Origin: a virus
Lineage: Duplodnaviria; Caudoviricetes
DNA length: 64,000 bases
Reading direction: 5' to 3' (one strand)
Virus record (IMG/VR): IMGVR_UViG_3300037422_000298
In this document: in pieces, positions 2,473 to 35,243 of the stretch
Layout: the number at the start of each line of letters is the position of its first letter
How positions within the stretch are numbered: position 1 is the stretch's first letter
Notes under the pieces: model-generated
Told to the model about the DNA's origin: nothing
Databases searched by the model: none
What the model saw: the letters and a program-made list of their open reading frames with translations, nothing else
Program-made: the position numbers and the translations under genes

Positions 2473-2666
2473 ACAAAAAAGAAATCCATCGTGGTTGTGG
2501 CGGCGACGTCGAGACGATCTATCGCAAACAAGATCTCGACGGCGATGGTGTACGCCGCATGCACCCCGAGTACGAGTGCGATTGTTGTGGATGGATCGCG
2601 CCTAGCGAGGTGCAGATCGTCGACGGCGAATCGAAATACCCCAAGGCCAGGATGATCCATCCATGA
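2469..2666 (+). CDS. small Cys-containing (zinc-ribbon-like) hypothetical protein
   Basis: GTGA overlap with upstream stop and ATGA overlap downstream; HRGCGG...CDCCG. Confidence 0.6.
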   Translation: MNKKEIHRGCGGDVETIYRKQDLDGDGVRRMHPEYECDCCGWIAPSEVQIVDGESKYPKARMIHP

Positions 2667-21607: not shown

Positions 21608-21653
21608 GATCGCGCCAGCGATCATCTTGACGACGTGGATCGCTCATGGGATC
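21608..21653. promoter_or_regulatory. two tandem GATC-N8-GATC elements
   Basis: GATCGCGCCAGCGATC (21608) and GATCGCTCATGGGATC (21638) upstream of the Arg-rich operon. Confidence 0.6.
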
Positions 21654-21717
21654 GTCTTTACGTCACACCCGATAGAAGGCCGTCGCCGACTTGAGGGACA
21701 ACCCGCAACAAGAGGAA

Positions 21718-21921
21718 ATGATCATGATCGCAGCAAACCTGGGTGACGGTCTCGGCCGTCGTCGTCGTCGCCGTCGCTCTCGCGGCATGGGCGCGCTCCC
21801 CACCCTCGTCGGCCGTCGCCGCCGGGGCAAGGGCAAGCGCCGCGGTCGCAAGATCTGCATCCGCACGGCCGCGGGCAACAAGGTCTGCGGCACCCGGTGG
21901 CGCCGCCGTCGCCGGAAGTAG
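21718..21921 (+). CDS. protamine-like Arg-rich protein (putative DNA-condensing core protein)
   Basis: AGAGG SD; LGDGLG-R7-SRGMG...VG-R4...R5K; followed by a terminator. Confidence 0.75.
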   Translation: MIMIAANLGDGLGRRRRRRRSRGMGALPTLVGRRRRGKGKRRGRKICIRTAAGNKVCGTRWRRRRRK

Positions 21922-21949
21922 GCCCAGCGTTCCGGCGCTAGCCTGAGAG

Positions 21950-21985
21950 AGGGCCGCGTGCGATACGTCGTACGCGGCCCTTTTT
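21950..21985 (+). terminator. intrinsic terminator
   Basis: AGGGCCGCGTGCGA-tacg-TCGTACGCGGCCCT hairpin followed by a T run. Confidence 0.85.
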
Positions 21986-22016
21986 CGTCGATCCACCTTC
22001 CCGCGCGGGAGATCTG

Positions 22017-22307
22017 ATGCCCACCAAGAAAGTGTCCGCAGCCGACCGGCGACACGCCGACTTCATGATCAAGACGCTCGCGCCTGATTTGAAGGCGAGC
22101 GGGCGCACGCACACCGCCAAGGATGTCGCACGCTGCGGGCGCCTCATGAAGTCGGGTGGCCGCGATCGCGGCTACGCCAACTGGCTCAAGCGCACGTTGA
22201 TCCCAGATCTGCGGGCTTCGGGACAGAAGTACACCGCGAACGATCTCGCACGCTGCGCGCGTACGATCTCGAATCAGCGCAAGCGCCGGAAGCGAAGGGC
22301 GCGCTAA
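22017..22307 (+). CDS. small basic protein with internal duplication and Arg tail
   Basis: TL(A/I)PDL(K/R)ASG...TA.D.ARC twice; ends RKRRKRRAR. Confidence 0.8.
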   Translation: MPTKKVSAADRRHADFMIKTLAPDLKASGRTHTAKDVARCGRLMKSGGRDRGYANWLKRTLIPDLRASGQKYTANDLARCARTISNQRKRRKRRAR

Positions 22308-22537
22308 TGTCGAAGCGCGTCGAGTTCGCTGACCTGCCTGTCGGCTCCTGCTTCGCGTACGACGCGAGCAGCAAGCACGCCACACGGCGCAAGGTCGACG
22401 AGCGCCACACCGTCGTGATCCCCGGCAGTAAGAAGCCGTTTCGCGTCGACGACGTCGAGACGCGTGTCTTCACGAAGGCCTGTCCCGTCAACTTCGGCCG
22501 TCGTCGCAAGCGGCGCCGCACCAAGAGGAGTCGCTAG
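22307..22537 (+). CDS. small basic protein with FG-poly-Arg tail
   Basis: TAATG coupling; ends NFGRRRKRRRTKRSR. Confidence 0.75.
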   Translation: MSKRVEFADLPVGSCFAYDASSKHATRRKVDERHTVVIPGSKKPFRVDDVETRVFTKACPVNFGRRRKRRRTKRSR

Positions 22538-22539
22538 TC

Positions 22540-22818
22540 ATGGCGAAGAGGAAACGGCGCAGGTCTCTGCGCGGCAGCGAAGATCGCTACGTCGTCAGTG
22601 GCCCCGCCACGTGGCGACGCAGCCTCCACGCGTCGAAGAGTGCAGCGATCGATCAGGCGAAGGCCTGCTCGAAGAAGCATCCCAACGCGGTCTGTAAGGT
22701 CACGCAGGGCCTACCCGGCCTGCAGCGCACCGTCGCCGAGTGCAACCGCAACGAGTGCTGGTCCGCTGATGGCGGCGTCGGCAAGCGTCGGCGTCGTCGG
22801 CGCAAGGCGAGGCGCTAG
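22540..22818 (+). CDS. small basic Cys-containing protein with Arg tracts at both ends
   Basis: MAKRKRRRSLRG...GGVGKRRRRRRKARR; GAGGAG SD. Confidence 0.75.
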   Translation: MAKRKRRRSLRGSEDRYVVSGPATWRRSLHASKSAAIDQAKACSKKHPNAVCKVTQGLPGLQRTVAECNRNECWSADGGVGKRRRRRRKARR

Positions 22819-22820
22819 TC

Positions 22821-23153
22821 ATGGCGGGGCGCAAGCGTCGTCGCCGTGGGCTCGGTAGCTCCGAGGCGATCCACACCAAGAAGATGTCCGAAGCGTCGTC
22901 GGAGATCGGACATATGGTCGCGCTCGTCACCAACAAGGCGCGCAACGGCCGGTGTGGTGCCGCGTCGAACGCGTACGGCTCGATGATGACCGCCTATGGC
23001 GAGTACCTCGCACACCAGGGCGCAGGCGGTCGCGCGAGTGCGCCTTCGCATGCTGCATCGATCCGCAAAGCCGCGACCGAGTTCAACAGCGCGTGCCTCG
23101 TCAACCACAGCCACACGATGACCGGACGTCGGCGTCGCAAAGCACGGAGGTAG
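22821..23153 (+). CDS. small basic protein with Arg tracts at both ends
   Basis: MAGRKRRRRGLG...MTGRRRRKARR. Confidence 0.75.
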   Translation: MAGRKRRRRGLGSSEAIHTKKMSEASSEIGHMVALVTNKARNGRCGAASNAYGSMMTAYGEYLAHQGAGGRASAPSHAASIRKAATEFNSACLVNHSHTMTGRRRRKARR

Positions 23154-23156
23154 GTC

Positions 23157-23420
23157 ATGAGCCAACTGCCGGGATCACCCACGTACCGTCTGCGCATTCA
23201 CACTGGTCCGGTGAAGGAAGCGCGGCGTGGATTCGCGCGCGCCCTCAAGCGCGCCAAGGTCAAGGTCGTCGATACGGGCACCGAGCACGTGACCGTCGAC
23301 GTCAAAGCGAACAGCTGCGACGACGCACAGTACCGTGTTGCGAAGGCACTACAAACGAAGGGTCTTCGTCGCATGTCGACGATGGCGTGGAGCGCGAGCT
23401 GTCAGCGGAGGAAGTCGTAA
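23157..23420 (+). CDS. small basic protein
   Basis: GGAGG SD, operon spacing of 3 bp. Confidence 0.7.
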   Translation: MSQLPGSPTYRLRIHTGPVKEARRGFARALKRAKVKVVDTGTEHVTVDVKANSCDDAQYRVAKALQTKGLRRMSTMAWSASCQRRKS

Positions 23421-23424
23421 AGCC

Positions 23425-23778
23425 ATGGCCAAGACACTCGTCAGCGTCATCCGCCCCGGTGACAAAGTCACGATCGTCACGCCGCAGGGTCAACAACGTA
23501 CCGGTCGCGCCGTTATGCGTTCATCGCACGGCGGTTGGGTGCTCAACATGGGCGGCAAGCACGGCACGCCCGGCATCGCCGACGACAGCAACATCGTCGC
23601 GGTCCGCGTTCGTGGAAGTTTCGGCGCCGTCACAAAACGCTGCGAGGTCTTTGCGACAGCCAAGCCGCGCGCGAAGCGTATGGAGTACGCAGGCAGCTTC
23701 GAGTCATGCTCGGCCGCCGAAGACTACGCTGAATACCTGCGCAAGGGTGGTCACAGAGCCCGTGTGAAGAGGCGCTAA
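23425..23778 (+). CDS. small basic two-part protein
   Basis: GGAGG SD; SH3-like first half, GSFG linker. Confidence 0.7.
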   Translation: MAKTLVSVIRPGDKVTIVTPQGQQRTGRAVMRSSHGGWVLNMGGKHGTPGIADDSNIVAVRVRGSFGAVTKRCEVFATAKPRAKRMEYAGSFESCSAAEDYAEYLRKGGHRARVKRR

Positions 23779-23780
23779 CG

Positions 23781-26231
23781 ATGGCCGCGATCATTCCACA
23801 CCTCGAAGTACCGTCCGATATCACGCCACTCGAACGTGCGTACGACATCTGCGCCGGTTCGATCAACGGCGCGTCGCTCGGCGAAGATTTACCATCCTGC
23901 CCGTCGCCAAACGCGGTCCTCGCGGACGCACATGCTGGCTTGCTCGGCATGGTGTACGTGCGTGAGGCCGTGTTCCAGAGCTTGATGACCAAGCAGTTCG
24001 TCGTGCGTCCCGGCGACATCAAGGGCAAGGACACGCGGAACGTTTACCTCGTGCTCGATCAACCGATCGGTCCCGGCCCAGCGTGGAACCCGGCGACGAA
24101 CCCCAATGTGCAGCAATACCAGCTGCTGTCGTGGACGTCGAAGATGAACACGCCGTCGTGGTCATTGCCTGCAGGCTCGCCGCAGATCGGCGGCGCGTGT
24201 CCTGGCGCCGTTGCTGGACAGAGCATCGTGCCGGAGAGCGCGCTGCGTGCAGCCGCACGCCACGTCAACCGCGGGCTCGGGCGTTCCAGCGAGACACCCG
24301 TCAACCTCGCACAGTGTATCTGCGAATTCTGTGTGACCGGTGACACGAAGGTACTCGTCGAGGGTCGTGGTTGGATTCCGATCGAAGAGCTTGTCGGCGC
24401 CAACGTTCGCGTCTGGTCGGGTATCGGTTGGCGCGACACGCATGCTGTGTTTCGCGGCGTCAAACCTACCGTTCAACTGACGACGTCGTGGGGGCACACG
24501 ATCCGCGCGACGGCAGATCACAAGATCTTGACGGTCGATCGCGGCATGGTGCCGATCGAAGAGCTGAAGGAAGGCGATCGTCTCGTTTTCCAGCCGCCTG
24601 AGGAAGGCCGGTGGCCGACAGTGGCGCCGATCGTTGGTTACACGCCGTCAGGACATCACAACGAGATCGACTACGAGAACATGCCGCGTGAGTGGACATT
24701 CCAAGTCGGGCTGTTTGCGGGCTACGTACTCGGCGATGGGAACATTTACGGAGGCAAACACCCAACGGTCAGTCTCGTAGCGTCCGAAGCCGATCGCGAC
24801 GACCTCGAACGTCTGCGCAACGTCGTGAATCGTTGGTGTGAGACCGACGCTTCGGTTACCGTGCGCGAGCACGCGCCCAACGGATTTACATCCAAGTTGA
24901 CGCGTTCGGCGCATCTCGCCTTCCGTGTAAAGGCCATCGCGCAACTGCTCACGGCGATCGGGCTCGACAAGTCCGTACCGCCGGAGGCGCGCCGCGTCCC
25001 GAACACGTTATGGACGGCGACACAGGAGGGCGTTCGCGGATTCCTCTGCGGGCTCTTCTCGACTGACGGGTCAGTGAGCCTCTCCAGTTCCAAGTTCGAG
25101 CTGTCTCTCGCGTCCGTCTCCGAGACATTGCTGCGCGATGTTCAGCTATTGCTCATGAGCTTCGGTATCCGCTCGACGATCTGCGCCTACGAAACTTCGA
25201 ACAGGCGGCGGGTCGTACAAGGTTACCGCCCGCTCTATAAGCTCTCGATCAGTAGCATCGGACACGTTCGACTGTTCGCAGATCGCATCGGTTTTTGGAA
25301 TGCGCGCAAGCACGCCAAGCTCCTCGAAGGCCTCGAACAGAACGCTGACGTCACAACGCAGCAGAAGTACCCCAAGGTTGAGGCAATCACCTGGCTCGAT
25401 GAAGAAGAGGCCGTCTACGACCTCATCAACGTCGGTGAAGAGCATCACTTCGTCGCCAACGGCATTACCGTGTCGAACTGCTACGCAACAGGCGGCCAGT
25501 ACAGCACCGGCCAAGTTCAGTTCGCGCAGTTGTTGCGCTTTCTGTGGGCACGTCAGGCGATCAACTTTCCGGCGCAGGCACCGGACGGCTCGATGTCGAC
25601 GGCGTTCGTCGAGACGATGGTCTACGCGATCAACAGCGCGGACTACAAGCTCGGTGGTGGCACCGTCAAAGGCGAGGGTGCCGAGGCGACGCAGGATCTG
25701 CCGCCGGAACCGAGCGGGCGACGCTTCTTCCGCATTCACGACTCCGGTGACTTCTTCGAAGAGGAGTATCTTCGGCAGTGGAAGGCCGTCGCCGATCGAC
25801 TGCCCGACATCACATTCTGGGCACCGTCGCGCATCTGGGCCACGAGCTGGGGCACCGACGCCGTCAACCGCTACAACCGTGACCAACGAAACCTGATCAT
25901 TCGACCGAGCGCCTACGAAGTGAACGAGCACGGTCCCGAGAACCTCGGGCCAGGCTGGGCAGGTCCGACGACGGTGATCGCTGTGCAGCAGAACCTCGGC
26001 ATGACGCCGGAGCGCGAACAGTACGTCTACGATCGCGCCGCGCGTTTCCCGCCAAAGATGACCGGTCCGGATCCGCGCTACACCTGGAACTGTCAGGCAT
26101 ACGCAACCGAGGATCAGAAGCACACGTGCCGCAAAGCCGTCGCACCGCCCGGCTTTGGCGGCCCTGACGGCAAAGGCTGTCGTGCGTGTTGGGTCGCGAC
26201 CGACGAAATCGTCAACTACTCACTGCACTGA
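23781..26231 (+). CDS. phage GP88-like protein (radical-SAM-like Cys motif) containing an intein
   Basis: SKM..SWSLPAG..CPGA, spliced CEF|CYA, FRIHDSGDFF, C-terminal C..C..CRAC. Confidence 0.75.
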   Translation: MAAIIPHLEVPSDITPLERAYDICAGSINGASLGEDLPSCPSPNAVLADAHAGLLGMVYVREAVFQSLMTKQFVVRPGDIKGKDTRNVYLVLDQPIGPGPAWNPATNPNVQQYQLLSWTSKMNTPSWSLPAGSPQIGGACPGAVAGQSIVPESALRAAARHVNRGLGRSSETPVNLAQCICEFCVTGDTKVLVEGRGWIPIEELVGANVRVWSGIGWRDTHAVFRGVKPTVQLTTSWGHTIRATADHKILTVDRGMVPIEELKEGDRLVFQPPEEGRWPTVAPIVGYTPSGHHNEIDYENMPREWTFQVGLFAGYVLGDGNIYGGKHPTVSLVASEADRDDLERLRNVVNRWCETDASVTVREHAPNGFTSKLTRSAHLAFRVKAIAQLLTAIGLDKSVPPEARRVPNTLWTATQEGVRGFLCGLFSTDGSVSLSSSKFELSLASVSETLLRDVQLLLMSFGIRSTICAYETSNRRRVVQGYRPLYKLSISSIGHVRLFADRIGFWNARKHAKLLEGLEQNADVTTQQKYPKVEAITWLDEEEAVYDLINVGEEHHFVANGITVSNCYATGGQYSTGQVQFAQLLRFLWARQAINFPAQAPDGSMSTAFVETMVYAINSADYKLGGGTVKGEGAEATQDLPPEPSGRRFFRIHDSGDFFEEEYLRQWKAVADRLPDITFWAPSRIWATSWGTDAVNRYNRDQRNLIIRPSAYEVNEHGPENLGPGWAGPTTVIAVQQNLGMTPEREQYVYDRAARFPPKMTGPDPRYTWNCQAYATEDQKHTCRKAVAPPGFGGPDGKGCRACWVATDEIVNYSLH
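24330..25478 (+). mobile_element. intein with LAGLIDADG homing endonuclease (383 aa)
   Basis: starts CVTGDT, TADHKI block B, GYVLGDG and FLCGLFSTDG, ends TVSN followed by Cys. Confidence 0.9.
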
Positions 26232-26236
26232 TCATC

Positions 26237-26731
26237 ATGCCGAAGAAGAAATCAACCAAGCCGACCGTGAAGCCTGCAAAGCCTGCGAAGGCTGCGAAGG
26301 TGCCAAAGGCGCCGAAGTCCAATGCGACTGACGTTCCGTGCCTTCGCGTCGTCGTTGGTGGTCGACAAGGCAAGACCGGCCAGACCGACGCGAATACGTG
26401 CGCGATCGTCGGTGAGAGTCGCGGAAGCGTCACGAAGTTCGATCTCAGACGCGAATACGGCTCGACCAGCAAGACTGTCGCGACGCCGAAGAAGAACAAG
26501 CCGTGCTTGAACGCGCTCAAGCGTAAGGGTTGTCCGGTACAGCTCGCGTTCGACGACGGTCAGCCATTTCTGCGCTTCTGTCGCGCGAACGGCGAAGCGG
26601 GCTACCGTGTCGACGTCAACTCGCCTGCGGAAGCCGTCGAGAAAGCCAATGCAGCCTGTGGTACTTGGACGGCCACCGGCAAGTTCGATTTCCCGCCCGA
26701 GACGCCGTTGCGGGGACGGCGACGTAAGTAA
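26237..26731 (+). CDS. basic protein with histone-H1-like K/P/A-rich N-terminus and LRG-RRRK tail
   Basis: KPAKPAKAAKVPKAPK; ends PLRGRRRK. Confidence 0.75.
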   Translation: MPKKKSTKPTVKPAKPAKAAKVPKAPKSNATDVPCLRVVVGGRQGKTGQTDANTCAIVGESRGSVTKFDLRREYGSTSKTVATPKKNKPCLNALKRKGCPVQLAFDDGQPFLRFCRANGEAGYRVDVNSPAEAVEKANAACGTWTATGKFDFPPETPLRGRRRK

Positions 26732-26758
26732 CGATCGCGTGCGCGATCGTGGTACGTT
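26732..26758 (+). promoter_or_regulatory. GATC-N8-GATC palindrome followed by -10-like TACGTT
   Basis: CGATCGCGTGCGCGATCG in a 51-bp intergenic gap. Confidence 0.6.
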
Positions 26759-26782
26759 GTAGCTACCGAAGGAGCTGACCCA

Positions 26783-27238
26783 GTGCCACACGTGTTCACC
26801 CTAGAAGGCGCCAACCTCGGTGCAGAGCCCGTGAACTTTCCCGAGGCCGGTCAGCCCATCGCACCACATCAGGCGATCGTCGGTCCGACGCGCGTCGCGC
26901 CCATGGTCTACGGCCCCGGCGGTACACCGATCATGTATCGGCGTCGCTATCCAGCACGCGGTCCCGTCTGCGACTACTGCGACCCCGACTACTTCACCGT
27001 CATGAACGGAGGACAGACCGTGATTCCATACCGTCAACAGCAGCTCGGTGACAGCGTCGAGGCCTTTCTGGAGCGTCAGTCCGATACCAGCCGGACTGTC
27101 ATGGTCGTAGGCGGCGCACTTGGCGTTGGTGCAGCTCTCGCGACGCTCGGCGTGTGGCTGTACTACAAGATCGGCTACAAGCCGAAGCGCAGCGCAAGCG
27201 GCTGGGGCGATAGTGGTTGGGGCGGATGGAAGTGGTGA
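26783..27238 (+). CDS. membrane protein (single C-terminal TM helix)
   Basis: AAGGAG SD; VMVVGGALGVGAALATLGVWLYY followed by a basic tail; NLGA and QLGD motifs. Confidence 0.75.
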   Translation: MPHVFTLEGANLGAEPVNFPEAGQPIAPHQAIVGPTRVAPMVYGPGGTPIMYRRRYPARGPVCDYCDPDYFTVMNGGQTVIPYRQQQLGDSVEAFLERQSDTSRTVMVVGGALGVGAALATLGVWLYYKIGYKPKRSASGWGDSGWGGWKW

Positions 27239-27239
27239 C

Positions 27240-27557
27240 GTGCCACAGCGCATTTCACTGATCGTCAAGGGTCCGCTCAAGAGCGCGCGTCGTGCGGCGC
27301 AACGTCACGGCGTAACGGTAGAGTCGTGCCGTGTCGTCGGCTCTGGCGCCGCGCTTCCCAAGCTCGCAGGCGATGTGCAGTGCTACGCGAAGTGCAGTAC
27401 GTCGATGAACCGTAAAGTCGTCGACTGGTTCAGTGATCGCGCACGCGCCAAGGCAGGTCGCGGCCACCCACCAGGGACGTTGCTGTATCACGGCAGCCTC
27501 TGCGAAGAGGATTTCGGTCGCCGCAAGAAGTCGCGCAAACGTCGCCGCCGTCGTTGA
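27240..27557 (+). CDS. small basic protein with FG-poly-Arg tail
   Basis: ends EDFGRRKKSRKRRRRR. Confidence 0.7.
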   Translation: MPQRISLIVKGPLKSARRAAQRHGVTVESCRVVGSGAALPKLAGDVQCYAKCSTSMNRKVVDWFSDRARAKAGRGHPPGTLLYHGSLCEEDFGRRKKSRKRRRRR

Positions 27558-27561
27558 TCGC

Positions 27562-28089
27562 GTGCTGCAGCGTTTGACACTTGCACTTCCCGAACGCGAG
27601 CGCGTCGCGCTCCGTGACGAAATTCTTCGTCGGTCCCAGCACGTCCCCAGCTACACACGCACGCACGCGACCAATGCTTGGCGTTCCGCGAGCGATTTGC
27701 ACACGTGGCCCACAGCAGCCGTCTTCTGCAACAGTCTCATTCAACTCCTGCAGGCGAGCGCGAGGCTCCCCATTGAACCGAAGACTCTTCGTGCATGGGC
27801 CATCGTTAGTCGTCGAGGTTCAGCACACGGTCGGCACATTCATCCTCAGCGCTTTGCGTGGTCCGGTGTCTACTATCTCGAACCCGGCGGTGCTGACAGC
27901 GCGCGGACCGTGTTCGAGACAGCCGAAGGTCTTGTGCCTATTGCACCCGAACGCGATCTCGCGATCGTTTTCCCCGCCGATTTGTGGCATTCAGTAGAGC
28001 CGCATCCCAACGACGACATGCGCGTCACGATCGCCTTCAATATAGAAGCCAAGCCGGGTTGCGTTGATCGCGCGAGCGATCGGGTGTAG
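27562..28089 (+). CDS. 2OG-Fe(II) oxygenase (TIGR02466-like)
   Basis: HIHP..WSGVYYL, IVFPADLWHSVEP, RVTIAFNI; start uncertain. Confidence 0.85.
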   Translation: MLQRLTLALPERERVALRDEILRRSQHVPSYTRTHATNAWRSASDLHTWPTAAVFCNSLIQLLQASARLPIEPKTLRAWAIVSRRGSAHGRHIHPQRFAWSGVYYLEPGGADSARTVFETAEGLVPIAPERDLAIVFPADLWHSVEPHPNDDMRVTIAFNIEAKPGCVDRASDRV

Positions 28090-28092
28090 GTT
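28065..28092 (+). promoter_or_regulatory. GATC-N8-GATC palindrome followed by -10-like TAGGTT
   Basis: TGATCGCGCGAGCGATCG, exact reverse complement of the copies at 29187 and 31908. Confidence 0.65.
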
Positions 28093-28142
28093 TTGATCTA
28101 CCTCGTCTCGTCAAGAGACCCCGGCCACGGCTAGGAGGACAC

Positions 28143-28538
28143 ATGGGTACGAAAGCTGGAACACTTCTCTGGAACCGTCAGCGGCTCACGCTGGATGCAG
28201 GCCTCACATCGATCGACACCCGTCTGCAGCAGGTCAACAAGAGCTTCGCCGACATGTCGCCGAACGAGCCGCCGCTCGGTGTGACGATCGCACCGCCAGG
28301 GCCACCCGATGGCACACCGCCAGCGTCCCGTATCCAGGTCATTCCCATGTCGCCGATCCCTCTGTGGACGGACATCACGCACGGTGAACCGTTCGTGAAT
28401 CCTGCGACGGGTACCGTCTGGGTGACGTTCAACAACGGCGGCAAGACGCCAGTCGAAATCAATGTCCTGTTCTGGGATCCGCACTCGGCCATCGGCCCCG
28501 GCCAAGCCAGCACGTACAACGTCCTCATCGAGGGCTGA
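28143..28538 (+). CDS. hypothetical (probably virion) protein
   Basis: AGGAGG SD; Pro/Thr/Gly and beta-rich. Confidence 0.75.
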   Translation: MGTKAGTLLWNRQRLTLDAGLTSIDTRLQQVNKSFADMSPNEPPLGVTIAPPGPPDGTPPASRIQVIPMSPIPLWTDITHGEPFVNPATGTVWVTFNNGGKTPVEINVLFWDPHSAIGPGQASTYNVLIEG

Positions 28539-28541
28539 CCG

Positions 28542-29147
28542 TCAGCTCTGCGGCGCGGGCGGTTTTTTCTTCTCCGTGAACGCCGCAAATTTGACGATGC
28601 GCTCGCGTGCGAGCAGCACCCAGTCGACGTACTTGATCGCGGCGACGTTCGCGACGCCTGCGTTCCCAGCAGCATGTCCTGCGAGCGCGCAGCGCAGCCG
28701 TCCCGTGCCTGTGCGGTCTCGGCAACGCTTGTCGTTGAGCCAAGTCGCCAGCTCCTTCGCGCCCGCGCGATAGCCATACGCGACGTCCGTACGCATCCGC
28801 TGGCATTCCGTCCACGAGACGTAGCCGCCCGCCTGTAGCGGACCACAGTACCAACTGGGCCGCGCCTTCGGCGGCGGCTTCGCTGGCGCCCACACACCGG
28901 TCTTTCGTGTGCAGCTTGCCGGATCATCAGACTCGCATTCGAGACGGCTCAACGCGCGTTGATCGAACCGCGACTCGACGTAGGCGACACCAAGCAGTAG
29001 CGTGACTGGATCATCGACGCCCAACTCGTCGAGTTTGTATTCAGCAGCTGCGGCGATGGCCGCCTCGACGTGAATCCGCGCTTGATCCGACGGTAGTTGG
29101 AACGAGATCGCGATGATTGCGGCGATGAGCGCTTCGAGAGTCATCAT
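28542..29147 (-). CDS. secreted lytic-transglycosylase-like protein
   Basis: hydrophobic N-terminus; LLGVAYVESRF catalytic Glu-Ser, CGPLQ, GAKEL, ALAGHAAG. Confidence 0.65.
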   Translation of the reverse strand: MMTLEALIAAIIAISFQLPSDQARIHVEAAIAAAAEYKLDELGVDDPVTLLLGVAYVESRFDQRALSRLECESDDPASCTRKTGVWAPAKPPPKARPSWYCGPLQAGGYVSWTECQRMRTDVAYGYRAGAKELATWLNDKRCRDRTGTGRLRCALAGHAAGNAGVANVAAIKYVDWVLLARERIVKFAAFTEKKKPPAPQS

Positions 29148-29186
29148 GGCCGCGAACCTACTACGAGCGCGTCTGTATGGAAGCGT

Positions 29187-29213
29187 CGATCGCTCGCGCG
29201 ATCATGATAGGCT
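29187..29213 (+). promoter_or_regulatory. GATC-N8-GATC palindrome followed by -10-like TAGGCT
   Basis: CGATCGCTCGCGCGATCA in a divergent intergenic gap. Confidence 0.65.
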
Positions 29214-29219
29214 AAGTGC

Positions 29220-29909
29220 GTGTTGACACTCTCGGCGTGGCCCACGGTGGCTTCTCAACAAGCCGAATTCGACCTCCATCAGCGGTTGAATCGGCTCCCG
29301 TGGTACGCACCGTCGGGTGCGAGTCTCGGCGCTGCCTCGTGGCCACGCATCTGGTCGACGGAAGCTGAAGTAGATCTGCAGTCACGCTTGAGCCGTTTGC
29401 CGTTCTACGCGCCGACAGGGCTCGGCGACATCGTTTCCGACGTTCAAAACCTCCTGCAGCAGCTCCAGTCGGGCGCTCTTGGACAGAAAGCAACCGAGGC
29501 GCTCCAAAAGCTCAACGCGATCATCGATCAAGCCGGGCCGCATCTCGACACCGTCATGCAGCTGCTGCAGGACCCGGCACTTCCGCAGGTGGTCGATCGT
29601 CTCAAGACACTGCAAACAATGTCCGCGACGCCGACGACGCCGACGGACACAACGACACCGACGGAGACAACACCGGCAACTCCACAGCCTACTGCCGCAG
29701 CCAAGCTGGTTCCGGTGCTGGATGCGGCGATCTTTGTCGAGCAGCATCCTGCAGCAAAGTTCGCGCTCGAACACCCAATCCTCGTCGGTGTCGGTGCTGC
29801 TGTCGTGTTAACTGGACTCGGTTTTGGTATCGGCTACGGCGTCTCGCGCGCTCGTGCGAAGCGTACGATGACGCCTGCTGCTTTCGGTCGTCGCTATCGA
29901 CGACGTTAA
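29220..29909 (+). CDS. membrane protein with tandem N-terminal repeat and FG-Arg tail
   Basis: WP...AE.DL..RL.RLP.YAP..(S)LG twice; TM ILVGVGAAVVLTGLGFGIGYGV; ends FGRRYRRR. Confidence 0.75.
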   Translation: MLTLSAWPTVASQQAEFDLHQRLNRLPWYAPSGASLGAASWPRIWSTEAEVDLQSRLSRLPFYAPTGLGDIVSDVQNLLQQLQSGALGQKATEALQKLNAIIDQAGPHLDTVMQLLQDPALPQVVDRLKTLQTMSATPTTPTDTTTPTETTPATPQPTAAAKLVPVLDAAIFVEQHPAAKFALEHPILVGVGAAVVLTGLGFGIGYGVSRARAKRTMTPAAFGRRYRRR

Positions 29910-30217
29910 GTTCCGCGCGTTCGCGTACGCGGCGGAGGCGGTGGTAGCAGCGCTGCATCAATTGCAGGCGTCGACGTCGACGGCGCGATCGACGGATCAG
30001 CAATCACAGCGACATCGTCGGCCGCCTCGAAGAACTTGATGATCTCGTGCGCCTGTTCGTAAGAGACCTCGACGAACGCACGTTGTTGAACAGCCCAGCG
30101 TTGCGCGAACACGATCCGATACTTCTGCGTCGTGGGGATCCGAACGAGATCGAGGCTGTGGTACGGCGAGAGGTGGATGATCAAGACGTCGGGGCTGGGA
30201 CGTTCGATCTCCGCCAT
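29906..30217 (-). CDS. hypothetical protein
   Basis: ATG 4 bp after the upstream stop; protein-like composition. Confidence 0.6.
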   Translation of the reverse strand: MAEIERPSPDVLIIHLSPYHSLDLVRIPTTQKYRIVFAQRWAVQQRAFVEVSYEQAHEIIKFFEAADDVAVIADPSIAPSTSTPAIDAALLPPPPPRTRTRGT

Positions 30218-30221
30218 GTGC

Positions 30222-30545
30222 TCACAGCAGTGGCGCGATGGTTGCCGTAACAGGTCCCGTGATCGCGACTGGACACACACCCGTGACGATGACTTGTTCA
30301 CCCGTCGGCATCCGGATCGTGAACTGACAGTTGTTGGTCGGCTGCACGACGACGACTTCAGGGCCGTATCCGTAGTAGTTGGGCCACCAACCACCGCCAC
30401 GGCGCCAACCCCCACCACGACGCCAGCCGCCGCCGTGATGATGTCCACCGCCGCCATGGCGCCAACCGCCACCGCGTCCTCCTCCGCCGCCTCCGCCGCG
30501 TCCGCCGCCTCCTCCACGTGGTCCGCTCAATGTCACCGCCAGCAT
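30222..30545 (-). CDS. Gly/Arg-rich (RGG-like) protein
   Basis: AAAGGA SD; GGGWRR repeats. Confidence 0.65.
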   Translation of the reverse strand: MLAVTLSGPRGGGGGRGGGGGGGRGGGWRHGGGGHHHGGGWRRGGGWRRGGGWWPNYYGYGPEVVVVQPTNNCQFTIRMPTGEQVIVTGVCPVAITGPVTATIAPLL

Positions 30546-30567
30546 ATCGTGATCCTTTCGTGGAACG

Positions 30568-31011
30568 TTAGGTGCCGATCGCGCCCGGGACTTCGACGTC
30601 GAGGAAACAGACGCCTGCTACTGCCTGCGACGTGATCTGCAGGATGGCGTTTCCAACGCCGTCTTCGCTGGCGGTAATGACCCACCCAGGAGTCGCGCCC
30701 GAGTTCGGCGTGAGGATACAACGCGCCATCGGCGTCTTCTCGTTGCCGAAGTTCGACGGTGGGAACCACGCGGACAGCCACAGAGCGCGTGCTTGCACGG
30801 CCGTGAGTCCGCCAGGCCCGCACTTGCCGTAGCCGTCTTGACGCGCTCGCGCGATCTTCTTGATCGGTCCGGCAAGCGAGTCGGTCAGGAGATCGGGCGT
30901 GGGCGCGCCTGTCGTGGTGATTGTTGCTGTAGTGCCTGCCAGGCCGTCTTGCGTCAGACGGTAGGTCAAGCGGTTCTTTCCTTGGAACGCCAATACAACC
31001 GCGATCGCCAT
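30568..31011 (-). CDS. putative virion protein, paralog 1
   Basis: NRLTY.L.QDG.AGTT..IT.TGA..PDLLTD shared with 31383..31841. Confidence 0.8.
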   Translation of the reverse strand: MAIAVVLAFQGKNRLTYRLTQDGLAGTTATITTTGAPTPDLLTDSLAGPIKKIARARQDGYGKCGPGGLTAVQARALWLSAWFPPSNFGNEKTPMARCILTPNSGATPGWVITASEDGVGNAILQITSQAVAGVCFLDVEVPGAIGT

Positions 31012-31020
31012 CGAGGGCTC

Positions 31021-31374
31021 CTATGCTGCAAGAGTGTGCCGGAATTCGAGCGCGACGATCGCCGTCGCGCCTGGTTCGGCCATGATTTTGAGCGCGACAG
31101 CCGCGCCTTCGGACTCGGCTCCGACAGCGACACGCTCGAACGACTGCGGCGTGACAAACGCGCGCATTGATGGATTGCACAGCAGGTAGCGGCAAGCCGC
31201 TTCCGCATCGGCGATCCGTACGCCGCGTTCGATGTACTTCCGCAGTGGGCCGTTCACCGTGTCGCGCACGAGATCGTCACGGCTCAACACGATCGCGCCG
31301 CCTTCTCGATCGGCGACCACGCTGTACTTGAGCAAGTTCGGGGTCGCGCCTTCACGATTGATTTTCAGGGCCAT
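31021..31374 (-). CDS. putative virion protein, divergent paralog
   Basis: AGGAG SD; N.L.Y...D...DL..D..GPLRK pattern aligns with neighbours. Confidence 0.7.
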   Translation of the reverse strand: MALKINREGATPNLLKYSVVADREGGAIVLSRDDLVRDTVNGPLRKYIERGVRIADAEAACRYLLCNPSMRAFVTPQSFERVAVGAESEGAAVALKIMAEPGATAIVALEFRHTLAA

Positions 31375-31382
31375 GGTCGCTC

Positions 31383-31841
31383 CTATACTCCGTCCACGCC
31401 GGGCACGAACACGTCGAGGTAGGCCTGCGCCGCGAGCGGCGGACCGACGATCGCAAGCAGCATGTTGCTGCCCGACACGTTGGCGTCGACCAACCAGGGT
31501 GCCCCCTGCCCGACACGATCGGTGACTTCGGCGCGCGCTGTGGGGAAAGCGCCGGAGTTTGCGGGCGTCGAGCCTGACGGCGACGCGCCGGAGTAGTCCG
31601 ATAGCAGAATCGCGCGAGCTTTCGCTTGGGTCATCGGCGTCGCAATCCTGCCGTAGCCGAGCGTGTTGGCCTTGGCGATGTTGCGGAGCGCCCCGACGCG
31701 ACCGGCGGTGTCGGTCAACAGATCCGGCGACGCCGCCCCCGTGGCCGTGATGTTGAGCGTGGTACCTGCAGCGCCGTCCTGGTTCAGGAGGTATGTCAGG
31801 CGATTGCCGGTAGCGCGAACGAGTGTCGCTGTGACAGCCAT
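31383..31841 (-). CDS. putative virion protein, paralog 2
   Basis: clear end-to-end similarity to 30568..31011. Confidence 0.8.
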   Translation of the reverse strand: MAVTATLVRATGNRLTYLLNQDGAAGTTLNITATGAASPDLLTDTAGRVGALRNIAKANTLGYGRIATPMTQAKARAILLSDYSGASPSGSTPANSGAFPTARAEVTDRVGQGAPWLVDANVSGSNMLLAIVGPPLAAQAYLDVFVPGVDGV

Positions 31842-31907
31842 TTGAATCCCTTCCTTGCCGTAAACCGGACCCGGAATTTCCGAGCGAGGTACTGTAGACG
31901 GTACCCG

Positions 31908-31927
31908 CGATCGCTCGCGCGATCAAC
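31908..31927. promoter_or_regulatory. GATC-N8-GATC palindrome in a divergent intergenic region
   Basis: CGATCGCTCGCGCGATCAAC, 20/20 identical to the reverse complement of 28063..28082. Confidence 0.65.
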
Positions 31928-31984
31928 TCGCTTCCCGTGCGCGATCAGTGGTATGGATAGGTCAAGCTCGAAGAAAGGGACGCT

Positions 31985-32242
31985 ATGGCGAAGAGTAGAA
32001 GGCGCCGTCGGTGGATTGGCGCGAAGCGTGGCAAGTCGGCTTACTGCCGAACACTCACCGCAAGTGACTGTGCGGTGAAGATCGGTGGCCGGAAGTACAA
32101 GGGCAAGGGTCGCTACTGCCCCGTCGGCAAGATCAAAGTCTGCCCATTCCGGCGCGGTCGCAAGACGACCTACAAAGCGCTCGGTCCCAAGGGCAAACTG
32201 AGGACCCTGCGCAAGGTGTCTCGTCGGCGTCGTCGACGGTAG
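31985..32242 (+). CDS. very basic small protein with Arg tracts at both ends
   Basis: MAKSRRRRRWIG...VSRRRRRR, 4 Cys. Confidence 0.75.
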   Translation: MAKSRRRRRWIGAKRGKSAYCRTLTASDCAVKIGGRKYKGKGRYCPVGKIKVCPFRRGRKTTYKALGPKGKLRTLRKVSRRRRRR

Positions 32243-32251
32243 GTCACGGCC

Positions 32252-32644
32252 ATGGCGGAGTCGCAATACGAGTACGAGATCCGCGAAATCCGGCGAGCAC
32301 AGCGCAGAGCGGACGAGGTCCGTAATGCGCCGCTCGCTGATCGTCGAGAAGCGCAAGCTGCATTCTTCGACGCGATTCGCGATCAACCGGATCACGTTGG
32401 CGACGTCGTTGGCTGGTTGCTCAATGGCAGCTACGGCTACGGCGAGCAGCAACTTGCCTTGCGCATACTCAACAGCCCTCGCATGAATCGCGTCGCCGCG
32501 CTCACGCAGATGGCTGCCGTCTTCGAGTGGCAGTGCCCAGAGGATCGGGCACGGCAAGCATGGAAGCGACTGACCGCACCCGAGAAGGCGCAGCTCGCGT
32601 ACGCAGTCCAAGACGCGATCCGCGATGCTGAAGAAGAGGCCTGA
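32252..32644 (+). CDS. hypothetical helical protein
   Basis: operon position, SD-like AGGT. Confidence 0.7.
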   Translation: MAESQYEYEIREIRRAQRRADEVRNAPLADRREAQAAFFDAIRDQPDHVGDVVGWLLNGSYGYGEQQLALRILNSPRMNRVAALTQMAAVFEWQCPEDRARQAWKRLTAPEKAQLAYAVQDAIRDAEEEA

Positions 32645-32874
32645 TGAAGAGACGTTGGAAAGCGGCGGGTCCACTCGGGCCGGGCGCTTACCACCGACGC
32701 TTCGGTAGCTGCCTACTTGTGGTCGGACGACTGCAGGGCGATAGCAGTGGTACACGCGCGCGATGGGCGATTCGCAGCAAGGATCTAGTTCAGCTACTGG
32801 ATACGGGAACTGCCAGAACGGAGCGCGCTGCGAAGGCAACGGCAGTCTCTCGTGCGCGACGGTTCTGCAAATGA
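32644..32874 (+). CDS. small basic hypothetical protein
   Basis: TGATG coupling. Confidence 0.55.
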   Translation: MKRRWKAAGPLGPGAYHRRFGSCLLVVGRLQGDSSGTRARWAIRSKDLVQLLDTGTARTERAAKATAVSRARRFCK

Positions 32875-32922
32875 GAGACACGTATTGCGCGTTGCGCGCG
32901 GTCCAAGTTTTCGGCAGATCGC

Positions 32923-33501
32923 CTAGCCGTTGTTCTTCGCGCCGAACGATGTCGGCACGAACATATCCGCGAGCGTGCGCGGGTAGACAACAACTGGCGT
33001 TCCCTGCTGAGCACGCTCGGCGACGACCACGCACGCCTGGCGCAACGTTCGACATACCGGCACCTGCGGATATGACAGTGTCAAGCGGCGCTGCAGGTAC
33101 GGGCCGCCTGTGAAACCGCGCTCGATGCCGACGACAAGCCGCGCGAGGCCCGCCCCAGCTTTCGTGACCCATTCGCCCAGCTCGAACCGTTGTTGTGCTG
33201 CGAACGTGCTGTCGCAGCGATGCTTAGTTTCTTTTGCGAGCCAGAACAGAATCGCGCCGTCGCGAGCGGCGCGTTCACTGAAGGCCTGCTCCCAGGTCAT
33301 GTGCAGTTCAGGACCGCCTGCGAAGTTGCGCCCGCGCGCGGACGCAACGTGCAAATCAGGCGCGACTTCACCAAGGATAGCGATCGCTTCGGCCTGCCAG
33401 TTGCCGGTGCCCTTGATGGGACCGTTCAGGTAGACAAGCGGACCCTCGATCTGGTTCACAGCGTCGAGATGGGTCGGCGCCGTGATGATCTGGCGCGGCA
33501 T
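32923..33501 (-). CDS. nucleoside 2-deoxyribosyltransferase-like protein
   Basis: VYLNGPI...NWQ, WE, ILFW, FELGEW pattern. Confidence 0.7.
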   Translation of the reverse strand: MPRQIITAPTHLDAVNQIEGPLVYLNGPIKGTGNWQAEAIAILGEVAPDLHVASARGRNFAGGPELHMTWEQAFSERAARDGAILFWLAKETKHRCDSTFAAQQRFELGEWVTKAGAGLARLVVGIERGFTGGPYLQRRLTLSYPQVPVCRTLRQACVVVAERAQQGTPVVVYPRTLADMFVPTSFGAKNNG

Positions 33502-33528
33502 CCCTACATGATACCATCCTAGACCACG

Positions 33529-34158
33529 ATGCTCGCGCAGCAGTACACACCCGGTTTCGGCGGTGATCTCTACGACGTCGAGCCATACCAACAGCTCGAA
33601 AAGTATTCGTGTGGGGCTGCTGCGTTCAAGGCAGTCGCACAACACTGGGGCGATCGCATCGACGAGCGGACACTCATCAAAGAGATCGGCATCGATCCGG
33701 AAGCGGGCTCCACCGCGGGTCAAGTTGCCGACGCTGCACAACGACGCGGCTATCCAGCACTCGTGCACCAGTTCTCGTCGATCGACGAGCTAGGACGGTA
33801 CACGGCACGCGACATCCCGGTGATCGTCGCGATTCGCAGCTTCATACGACCGAACCAAGGTCACTTCGTCGTCGCTACGAAGGTCACGCCGACCGACGTC
33901 CACGTCATGGATCCCAACGTTCGAGGAAACCGCCGCACGATTCCGCGTCCCGACATGGTCCGGCGTTGGCGCTTTCGTGAAAACGTCGGCGTCATCATCC
34001 TGCCACGGCGCAGGCGTACGACGCTCGGACAAGACACGAGCACGCCAAAGAAGCTCGAAGGCAAGCAGATCTTCGCGCTCGCGACGGCCGGACTGTTCGT
34101 CGCAATCACGGCCGTGAGTGCAGGAATCGCGATCTATCGTCGGCGCAAAGCGAGCTAG
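33529..34158 (+). CDS. C39-like cysteine peptidase with C-terminal membrane anchor
   Basis: YQQ...YSCGAAA (Gln/Cys), GHFVV (His), VMDPN (Asp); TM IFALATAGLFVAITAVSAGIAIY followed by RRRK. Confidence 0.88.
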   Translation: MLAQQYTPGFGGDLYDVEPYQQLEKYSCGAAAFKAVAQHWGDRIDERTLIKEIGIDPEAGSTAGQVADAAQRRGYPALVHQFSSIDELGRYTARDIPVIVAIRSFIRPNQGHFVVATKVTPTDVHVMDPNVRGNRRTIPRPDMVRRWRFRENVGVIILPRRRRTTLGQDTSTPKKLEGKQIFALATAGLFVAITAVSAGIAIYRRRKAS

Positions 34159-34308: not shown

Positions 34309-35163
34309 CTACCAGCGTAGCGCGGCGCGTTCCGAGTCGTTGAGCCGGTTCCACATCTTGAGATCGTCGTCGGTGAGCCGCGTCTCCTGCTTGTAGCTGC
34401 GACCCTGACGGCACTGCTTGATCTTCTGCTCGCGATAGTAGATTCGGACGCCGTCCTTCACTTCGCTATACAGCTCGGCCTTCTCGATCGCGAGCAGCTT
34501 CTCCGGTCTGCTGACGGCGACGCGCTTGGTCGCCTCGCGATGCTCGGTCTGTTTGCAAAGCAAGCCGCGACTCCAGCGGCGATTGCTGTAGTAACCGCAC
34601 TCGCGCCACGCAGCGTCTGCAGGCACCATCCAGAACAGCGTCGTGCCGTAGTCCATCACGCGACGTCCAGCAACCCAGCCGTTGATCTCGTCCGCGCTCG
34701 GATGGCTGCGATCTCGATAGCGCGCCCTGCGATTCCAGCTGTTGTGCGGGTGCAACCGCAAGATCCCGTGCGGGTCAACGTAGAAGTTGCCCCAATAGCG
34801 CTCGCGCGCATCCGTTGGCTGCAGCGTGACGTCGCTCAGCAGGTGACTGAACACGACGTGGCGACCTGCAACGGTGCGTGTGTCGAACTTTGCTACCAGC
34901 TCGGCGTAGATCTTGTGCCACGCGCGACCGACCTGCGACTTCAGCCAGCGATACATCGGGCTGAGCTTGTCTCGGAAGTCTTTGCCGACCTTCTTGCGCT
35001 TGGGCGCGACGTCGGCGTCGTCGGTGTCGGTCAGGTTCGCCACGTCGTGACAGAACGCGCGCGACTGCGCCCGATGCATCTCGTTCGACGCGTAGCGCTC
35101 GCGCTTGTTGTACGAACCACGACCGCCCTCGATCACGGTACGCGATAGATCCTTCGTCGCCAT
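34309..35163 (-). CDS. hypothetical protein
   Basis: AAGGGG SD, CTCTTGAC promoter-like box upstream, 284 codons. Confidence 0.75.
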   Translation of the reverse strand: MATKDLSRTVIEGGRGSYNKRERYASNEMHRAQSRAFCHDVANLTDTDDADVAPKRKKVGKDFRDKLSPMYRWLKSQVGRAWHKIYAELVAKFDTRTVAGRHVVFSHLLSDVTLQPTDARERYWGNFYVDPHGILRLHPHNSWNRRARYRDRSHPSADEINGWVAGRRVMDYGTTLFWMVPADAAWRECGYYSNRRWSRGLLCKQTEHREATKRVAVSRPEKLLAIEKAELYSEVKDGVRIYYREQKIKQCRQGRSYKQETRLTDDDLKMWNRLNDSERAALRW

Positions 35164-35243
35164 GCGATGCCCCTTGTAACAGTATCCCCAGAAACTAGTC
35201 AAGAGTTACTTGCTTCATGTGGTTGCGACACGGCTGCGACAGG

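Follow-up and report, generated by a model that had tools for sequence, protein, structure and literature searches.

What becomes of the arginine runs that end so many small proteins in one block of a large virus is the question raised by IMG/VR virus record IMGVR_UViG_3300037422_000298 (Duplodnaviria; Caudoviricetes), of which we analysed a 64,000-nucleotide stretch (hereafter the window; 62% G+C, phage-like) of a 241-kb peptidase-bearing contig. Between 21691 and 34158, otherwise unrelated proteins carry terminal runs of Arg and Lys, many of them joined to the body by a hydrophobic residue and a Gly, and a membrane-anchored peptidase of the C39 type is encoded in the same block. An earlier interpretation of this DNA (the sequence-only reading) took the runs for removable DNA-binding tags and the Gly motifs for sites at which the peptidase cuts. 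We find that the tags are real and conserved and, to date, have not been described; a literature search turned up no account of a C39 maturation protease from a phage or of phage proteins with poly-Arg tags. Our tentative interpretation (probability about 0.45) is that the Arg runs are lasting handles that bind polyanions and sit on a Gly hinge, with the C39 peptidase acting mainly on N-terminal ML...GFG leaders, including its own.

After a codon-usage gene call, the window was scanned for R/K runs, defined as at least four R/K including at least three R. Sixteen such runs lie in 10 proteins at 21691–34158 and two in the other ~50 kb, and nearly all sit at the extreme N- or C-terminus. Every example quoted by the sequence-only reading is present, i.e., GLG-R7, LVG-R4, NFG-RRRKRRR, MAKRKRRR-SLRG, GVG-KR6K, R4-GLG, MTG-R4K, LRG-RRRK, DFG-RRKK..R5, AFG-RRYRRR, R5-WIG, GFGG and RRRRTT-LG. 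When the non-tract residues were permuted inside each protein (20,000 rounds), the motif proved more frequent beside the tracts than composition predicts, as that reading had proposed. Gly stands at position −1 of 7 of 15 tracts (1.76 expected, P=5.5e-4), and hydrophobic-(x)-Gly ends at −1 in seven tracts against 0.76 expected, a count that 0 of the 20,000 shuffles reached. Behind each of the three N-terminal tracts, hydrophobic-(x)-Gly comes within four residues (0.27 expected, P=9e-4). Among the 29 families with a basic C-tail in seven genomes, eight have Gly at −1 in the majority of their members (binomial P=1.3e-3). The genes of the block in which these ends occur, with the gene that anchors its synteny and the peptidase, are as follows.

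21718–21921, plus strand: protein A, 67 amino acids (aa), almost all basic, with the leader MIMIAANLGDGLG, then R7-SRGMG-ALPTLVG-R4..., a C-terminal Cys pair and the end W-R5K.
22017–22307, plus strand: protein B, 96 aa, with a Gly-less C-tail, ..SNQ-RKRRKRRAR (the L017 ortholog ends ..APQ-RKRRKRRAR).
22307–22537, plus strand: protein C, 76 aa, ending ..CPVNFG-RRRKRRRTKRSR.
22540–22818, plus strand: protein D, 92 aa, with N-leader MAKRKRRRSLRG, body SEDRYVVSGP... and C-tail ..GGVG-KR6KARR.
22821–23153, plus strand: protein E, 110 aa, helical, with N-leader MAGRKRRRRGLG, body SSEAIHT... and C-tail ..MTG-RRRRKARR.
23157–23420, plus strand: protein F, 87 aa, conserved, ending ..CQRRKS (orthologs L017_8215, ..CQ-RRKR, and L014_19325).
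23425–23778, plus strand: protein G, 117 aa, a small beta domain GDKVTIVTPQGQQRTG..., then ..GSFG-AVTKR..., ending ..HRARVKRR.
23781–26231, plus strand: GP88-family protein (PF17338) with a LAGLIDADG intein inside, the synteny anchor of the block.
26237–26731, plus strand: protein I, 164 aa, ending ..TPLRG-RRRK.
27240–27557, plus strand: protein K, 105 aa, ending ..EEDFG-RRKKSRKRRRRR.
29220–29909, plus strand: protein O, 229 aa, with repeated ..YAP(S/T)G..LG modules, a body from LG-DIVSD, a C-terminal membrane helix and the end ..AFG-RRYRRR.
31985–32242, plus strand: protein S, 85 aa, MAKSRRRRR-WIG-AKRGK..., ending ..KVS-RRRRRR (in the L033 ortholog FTA replaces WIG).
33529–34158, plus strand: stand-alone C39 peptidase, 209 aa, with the leader MLAQQYTPGFG(11)-G, the domain at ~17–160, P-RRRR-TT-L166-G167, a disordered linker, a membrane helix at 179–203 and the end YRRRKAS.

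Relatives were gathered by searches with a neighbouring protein, the peptidase, protein I and GP88; a single-sequence C39 query of IMG/VR had returned no relative, and profile and neighbour searches later gave them. We examined G001, L002, L013–L017, L029, L031, L033, L035, G006, G007 and G008, of which G001 (195.8 kb, 90%-complete) was analysed whole. G003 (137.9 kb) is a complete relative, with a 123-bp terminal repeat and CheckV 100%, that has 44 of 199 proteins in common with G001 at a mean identity of 44%, and G009 (82.7 kb), also complete, is related more distantly. At the DNA level, megablast of the block detected no similar sequence among GenBank phages.

The predicted conservation of the motif was borne out in these relatives. 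Tags, Gly junctions and gene order recur in at least 10 related metagenomic contigs, the tags are kept at 40–85% identity, and the order small basic genes, GP88, I, J ... C39 is maintained. Protein A orthologs (G001, L002, L013, L014, L015) retain GDGLG-(K)R5-7, ..[ML]G, PTLVG-R and CGTRWR(K/R)RR, and the FG-RRRKRR junction of protein C is kept in G001, L002, L017, L029 and L031, with the variants LLG-R5 and GVG-R6 in L014. Relatives of protein D retain GG(V/M)G-KR5-6. In an alignment of six protein E orthologs, L11 and G12 are invariant, (S/G/T/F)LG-S follows the basic leader and the C-tail Gly is present in 4 of 6. Gly precedes a variable basic tail in 7 of 7 protein I orthologs, for example as TPL(R)G. 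The ends of protein K orthologs range over GLG-KRK, NLG-RS.., ALDG-AR.. and SGLS-RRR, and short orthologs of protein O begin MLTLQRADGLG-DTISD or MLALTRTTQFG-DVVDD. The motif is far from universal, as roughly half of the tails lack Gly at −1, among them the tail of protein B (..SNQ-RKRRKRR), the last tract of protein A (..TRW-R5K) and the C-tail of protein S (..KVS-R6), while the WIG of protein S and the MTG of protein E are not retained in an ortholog.

In a genome of 62% G+C, spurious Arg-rich open reading frames (ORFs) in which Gly adjoins the runs by chance would give a similar picture, and off-frame ORFs in the window are full of Arg runs. This artefact has practically no chance of being the explanation and is already refuted. 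The genes of the block are tightly coupled, with a G+C content at third codon positions (GC3) of 0.72–0.87, the ratio of nonsynonymous to synonymous substitution rates (dN/dS) of the small ORFs against their orthologs is 0.22–0.51 (0.26 for protein A, 0.32–0.44 for C and 0.22 for D), indicating purifying selection, orthologs occur in more than 10 contigs, and the shuffles reject chance. The Arg codons of the runs are mixed (CGT, CGC, CGG, AGG), and a DNA-repeat origin was rejected for that reason; together with the dN/dS values, this mixture identifies the tracts as features of the proteins and not DNA repeats.

The junction is directional. An N-terminal tag has the form M-(A)-basic-x-hydrophobic-Gly / body and a C-terminal one the form body-hydrophobic-Gly / basic (the slash marks the junction), so that hydrophobic-Gly is always on the N-terminal side of the junction, for leaders and tails alike. 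The peptide ..RRGLGSSEAIHTK spans a tag junction, and SSEAIHTK.. and SEDRYVVSGPATWR start right after an N-terminal Gly. Hydrophobic-Gly at residues 10–13 is not enriched genome-wide (0.025 vs 0.020), and a leader code of that kind was therefore rejected; the motif is meaningful only beside terminal extensions.

The same small domains also occur fused in relatives, and there the basic ends change. C and D domains are joined via AGAGG in L016 (4501–4944), with both basic tracts lost; G and D are fused via ..KRPRTGRMLG/AGTEHYVVSGP in L014 (18836–19321), and G and C via ..ARKRKGLG/FSW... in L013 (10462–10887). The G domain also occurs free in G001 (69093), with the leader MAKRRRKRAQMAG. The loss of tracts on fusion, or their survival as linkers, shows that they are appendages of free ends and linkers and not parts of the fold, and that hydrophobic-Gly marks domain borders. 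The LG[DAE] motifs assigned to domain boundaries in the products of 23781, 26783 and 29220 by the sequence-only reading are present; they are weak evidence, and uninformative in 23781, an almost invariant protein.

One short end on unrelated bodies, strictly terminal and lost upon domain fusion, is also what might be expected of a pure targeting signal, in which an assembly or packaging factor recognises poly-Arg plus the hydrophobic-Gly end, like encapsulin cargo peptides or the capsid-targeting sequences of phage T4, with or without later removal by another protease. The promoter element that the tag genes have in common with membrane-protein genes (see below) fits such a signal as well. However, no receptor or shell protein was identified, and the length and sequence of the tails vary widely among orthologs, which fits charge better than specific docking. 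Targeting as the sole function is unlikely in our estimation.

The proposed membrane-anchored C39-like enzyme held up well. The peptidase matches PF03412 at 51.6 bits (cut-off 22, E=1.1e-13) and also PF13529 at 42 bits. Across 26 sequences, Gln22, Cys28, His112 and Asp128 vary little or not at all, and they align with the Gln, Cys-Gly, His and Asp-Pro that are conserved in the ComA peptidase domain (3K8U). A 26-homolog profile finds that domain at 2.7e-10, and also PCAT1 and LahT150. In the AlphaFold2 (AF2) model, the predicted local distance difference test score (pLDDT) exceeds 94 over residues 21–160 and is below 50 for 1–12 and most of 168–185; the block 161–170 around L166-G167 has a mean of 61. 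The best Foldseek matches of the model are PCAT1, ComA and LahT150 (E 1.6e-8 to 3.6e-7, target-normalised template modelling (TM) score 0.78–0.89, root-mean-square deviation ~2 Å). By Pfam, catalytic residues and modelled fold, the peptidase is a true C39 double-glycine-type domain, and it is predicted from its residues to be catalytically active. Its architecture departs from the PCAT/AMS type, with one C-terminal helix and no ATP-binding cassette (ABC) domains, hence no fusion to an ABC exporter. About 60 peptidase homologs are 170–270 aa long, in a search that did not cover longer forms.

Hydrophobic-Gly pairs lie on both sides of the domain, in segments that are largely disordered. In ~24 viral homologs the N-terminus reads ML..(L/F)G directly before DVEPYQQ, and the domain is followed by P-(K/R)-x-(K/R)-..-(L/F)-G, a linker, a membrane helix and YRRR(K/R). 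The GFGG and RRRRTT-LG noted around the peptidase by the earlier interpretation are thus present; only [LF]G is conserved at both flanks, and the GFGG and RRRR of the window are local variants.

A C39-like fold could also serve lysis or entry by cutting peptide links of the host wall, or act on a host protein, with the tags unrelated to it. The pseudomurein endoisopeptidase PeiR is among the matches both in sequence (E=5e-5) and in fold (TM 0.55–0.60), and the block encodes several membrane proteins with one helix and a protein whose ES motif resembles that of transglycosylases. Leader peptidases are by far the best matches, however (ComA at 2.7e-10; target-normalised TM 0.84–0.89), the enzyme has no signal peptide, and its predicted tail-anchor topology would keep the domain cytoplasmic or interior. 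A lysis or entry role would also leave the conserved flanking motif, common to other viral proteins, unexplained, and we consider it very unlikely.

The central proposal of the sequence-only reading was that the hydrophobic-Gly motifs are C39 cleavage sites with Gly at P1, at which the peptidase removes N-terminal leaders and C-terminal poly-Arg tags from core proteins and frees itself from its anchor, as the adenovirus protease does with pVII and pX. The non-randomness, direction and conservation of the motif have stood up, and the same pair occurs in both disordered flanks of the peptidase in the ~24 homologs. Fused relatives hold basic residues with GLG or MLG, or GG, in their linkers, resembling polyprotein sites, and protein A has three conserved sites that bound short Arg peptides. 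At least 12 related contigs, like the window, have tags and peptidase together in one block.

Against cleavage at these motifs stands their sequence. Characterised C39 enzymes (ComA, LahT, PCAT1) need Gly at P2. At the candidate junctions P2 is Leu, Phe, Val, Met or Arg, which does not conform to the Gly-Gly/Ala/Ser end of C39 leaders; GG occurs only in the GFG-G of the peptidase itself and in the AGAGG of one fused relative. A modelled complex of peptidase residues 1–168 with protein E scored 0.01 against a mark of 0.32, a result that counts neither for nor against. The tails without Gly at −1 also speak against such cleavage.

The relatives without a C39 gene, a sample of only one or two genomes, also bear on cleavage. 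An intact C39 gene lies in the same syntenic block in most relatives, as expected if motif and peptidase travel together, but G003 keeps its tags without it: profile search, hmmsearch --max on six frames and PF13529 found no C39 gene in G003, while the positive control, G001, was found at 4e-93. G003 retains five poly-Arg C-tails (..LSGA/R5, ..TGAS/R5K, ..LGRA/RRKRRRK, ..KGT/RRKR and ..RGLI/KRRRKK...), its protein I ends ..QQLG-RRK, and its basic leaders MAKRHKRRSGLG-, MARRRKKQLADFG- and MARRRKYVG- end in LG, FG or VG. Thus, neither the tags nor a Gly close to them depend on the protease. The precise position of the Gly may be a different matter. All five G003 tails have Gly within three residues, with the C-tail Gly shifted by 1–2 residues, and under a strict definition of soluble tails Gly stands at −1 in 20 of 45 tails of C39 genomes vs 0 of 5 in G003 (Fisher P=0.075), so that a tight Gly at −1 is found only in C39 genomes and its exact, P1-like placement may need the C39 protease. 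G009, also without C39, has no such tags near GP88, in agreement with cleavage. On balance, general removal of the tags by the C39 enzyme is possible, though doubtful.

We instead favour handles that stay in place. The block encodes clade-specific small, fast-evolving and very basic proteins with unrelated folded bodies, each of which is joined to a terminal poly-Arg/Lys extension by a short Gly-containing junction, usually hydrophobic-Gly. The Arg runs would not be removed and would bind viral DNA or another polyanion, with the Gly as a hinge that closes the folded part; such handles could condense or neutralise the ~240-kb genome, or carry proteins along with it. The most probable substrates of the C39 enzyme would be the short N-terminal ML...(Y/H)...GFG leaders of tail-anchored membrane proteins, one of which is on the peptidase itself. 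C39 leader peptidases cut short N-terminal leaders after Gly, and the ML leaders are favoured since they match such N-terminal, Gly-ended substrates. Trimming of poly-Arg at hydrophobic-Gly may occur additionally and would not be required for the tags to exist. The DNA binding, the virion association and the identity of the substrates are what we infer.

At least six tail-anchored G001 proteins begin MIVSSYGNGFG-, MLIQAHSGGNGFG-, MLQTQYYGNGFG-, MLIAHYGAFG- or MLFTTTISGAFG- and end in a membrane helix plus (Y/F/L)RRKR. The peptidase has the same two ends as these membrane proteins, as an ML-leader start and a helix-basic end are common to both. ML...GFG leaders were not found in the C39-less G003.

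Several observations weigh against permanent handles. Hydrophobic-Gly before the boundary at both ends is not required by a symmetric hinge and fits a P2-P1 protease rule better. The Gly-at-(−1) trend in C39 genomes is as expected if a protease determines exactly where the Gly stands. Two genomes with the enzyme and one without underlie the link of ML leaders to C39, and the DNA binding and virion location that the handles presuppose are themselves putative.

Tag genes, ML-leader genes and the C39 gene also appear to be linked through a regulatory element.

21608–21623, no strand assigned: palindrome GATCGC-N4-GCGATC upstream of protein A, with further copies at 26733, 28066, 29188, 31909, 50602 and 59872.

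At up to one mismatch, the window holds 14 matches to this palindrome vs 1.6 expected. The perfect copies are mostly intergenic, 10–90 bp before starts on either strand, and copies in the block precede A, J, M, N/O and R/S. G001 has 44 copies, before tag genes and ML-leader genes, one of them 30 bp before the C39 start. The genes for tagged proteins, ML-leader membrane proteins and C39 form a putative regulon with a common palindromic promoter element.

Comparison with known systems shows how far the viral enzyme resembles its characterised relatives. It has the fold and the Gln/Cys/His/Asp set of the ComA, PCAT1 and LahT150 C39 peptidases, and, as in C39 systems, enzyme and putative substrates bear short Gly-ended N-terminal leaders. 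Unlike those peptidases, it is virus-encoded and stand-alone, with a C-terminal membrane helix in place of an ABC exporter fusion, and unlike C39 substrates, the candidate sites are hydrophobic-Gly and not Gly-Gly/Ala/Ser, the leaders are 8–13 and not 15–30 residues long, and many sites are C-terminal.

Adenain (MEROPS C5) of adenovirus processes the basic core proteins pVII and pX (Mu) at (M/L/I)XGG-X and (M/L/I)XGX-G. The likeness lies in a virus-encoded cysteine protease and small Arg-rich proteins with Gly-containing hydrophobic motifs beside Arg runs, and protein A resembles pX in layout. However, the enzymes belong to different clans (CA/C39 here, CE in adenovirus), the motif here has Gly at P1 and a hydrophobic P2 whereas the adenovirus motif has a hydrophobic P4 and Gly at P2, and cleavage here is only putative. 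The clan CE Ulp1-like family PF02902 had no match in G001 or G003; PF00770 was not searched for.

In phage T4, capsid-targeting sequences on internal proteins are cut by the prohead protease gp21 at (L/I)XE, and phiKZ gp175 is a further such case. The T4 tags likewise form a short common terminal tag on unrelated small proteins and end in a fixed two- or three-residue motif. In contrast to the block, they are N-terminal only and not poly-basic, and a serine protease cuts after Glu; searches of clade relatives revealed neither a head protease nor a hallmark gene of tailed phages. In Staphylococcus, ribosomal protein L27 and the capsid and scaffold proteins of phage 80alpha lose their N-terminal leader to the cysteine protease Prp. 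This system is alike in having a cysteine protease that removes an ML...-type N-terminal leader of ~9–13 residues common to several proteins, whereas Prp is a host enzyme of another fold that cuts after Phe and not Gly.

If the tags are cut, the peptidase would be the first virus-encoded C39 maturation protease, with a Gly-P1/hydrophobic-P2 specificity new for C39 and a bacterial parallel to adenovirus core-protein processing. If they stay uncut, the tags would be a conserved, portable poly-Arg end on unrelated proteins of a poorly known large-phage group, a likely means by which a very large packaged genome is neutralised or organised, and a test case for tag evolution, being gained, lost and kept as linkers on domain fusion.

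In G001, Phage_capsid, Terminase_6N, Terminase_6C, TerL_ATPase and Phage_portal had no match at E<=1, and in G003 Terminase_6C, TerL_ATPase and Phage_portal had none, absences that are not proof. The largest G001 proteins matched no head or tail PHROG. These negatives are consistent with a non-tailed particle without proving it. A broader scheme would be a clade of uncultured bacterial viruses of 140–240 kb, with no detectable terminase, portal or HK97 capsid gene, that matures its particles by a membrane-anchored C39 cutting after hydrophobic-Gly, thereby removing ML and poly-basic leaders and poly-Arg tails from DNA-condensing core and membrane proteins, as a bacterial counterpart of core processing in adenovirus, poxvirus and African swine fever virus. 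We regard this scheme as speculative and rather improbable. The reductase and polymerase genes of the window flank a HerA/DUF87 ATPase (10849–12612) with a match at 5e-18 to a PHROG that bears the label terminase large subunit. This ATPase was considered as a packaging ATPase of the PRD1 type; it is present in G001 but tblastn did not find it in G003, so that it is no hallmark of the clade.

The remaining genes of the block are listed below.

26783–27238, plus strand: protein J, 151 aa, a membrane protein with one helix near the C-terminus and the palindrome 35 bp upstream.
27433–28089, plus strand: 2-oxoglutarate-Fe(II) oxygenase ORF (PF13759 at 1.3e-14, phrog_81).
28143–28538, plus strand: protein M, 131 aa, a conserved untagged family with 2–3 paralogs in relatives.
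28542–29147, minus strand: protein N, 201 aa, conserved, with a ..GVAYVESRF.. motif.
30222–30545, minus strand: Gly/Arg/His/Trp-rich protein, 107 aa, starting MLAVTLSG (L014 homolog at 8384–8641).
30568–31011, minus strand: protein Q, 147 aa, a paralog of R (41% identity).
31021–31371, minus strand: conserved 116-aa protein, ..REGATPNLLKYS..ALEFRH.., with no PHROG match.
31383–31841, minus strand: protein R, 152 aa, a beta-sandwich (AF2 pLDDT 86).

Nothing in Pfam or PHROGs matched the small basic proteins, proteins I, J, K, M, N, O, Q and R, the 116-aa protein or 34309–35202, and no block gene matched a known structural protein in these searches. The oxygenase ORF probably starts just past 27557, judging from its 167-aa orthologs. 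Protein N looks like a lytic transglycosylase by its motif, with no match found by hidden Markov model. The protein M family, MS(T/K)KAGALLWNR...NVLFWDPH..GPG.AD.Y, matched no known family; it has one copy in the window and others at 26396–27545 in G001 and at 14480–15266 and 8641–8991 in L014.

The first half of the 107-aa protein consists of nearly only Gly, Arg, His and Trp (GGGGGRGGGGGGGRGGGWRHGGGGHHHGGGW...) and is followed by a small beta domain, and its L014 homolog carries GGGHPHGGG repeats. Q, the 116-aa protein and R form a minus-strand cluster of three small conserved proteins with at least 37 metagenomic homologs. A search of the PDB with protein R gave nothing convincing (Foldseek E>0.1; the best VIA at Z 5.2). 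As a candidate capsid-like jelly roll, protein R had only generic beta-sandwich matches, with viral coat proteins at Z 3.5–4.3 amid many carbohydrate-binding module (CBM) and cupin rows, and no conclusion was drawn.

The window further contains a replication module at 0.6–20 kb, with SNF2 helicase, ribonucleotide reductase, HerA-like ATPase, family-A polymerase, DEAD helicase and Dam-type methylase. Four of its genes hold inteins, namely those for a PD-(D/E)XK nuclease (2663–4942), the ribonucleotide reductase large subunit (6630–10235), the GP88-family protein (23781–26231) and an AAA ATPase (44370–46499); the GP88 orthologs of all relatives examined are without an intein. A single tRNA-Phe (GAA) lies on the minus strand at 51522–51597. 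G001 encodes a 789-aa von Willebrand factor A (vWA) protein (L009:10533–12902, G001 130533–132902) with 33–34% full-length identity to a protein conserved among large phages, Ackermannviridae-type and others (503 GenBank phage records), a rare link of the clade to cultured phages.

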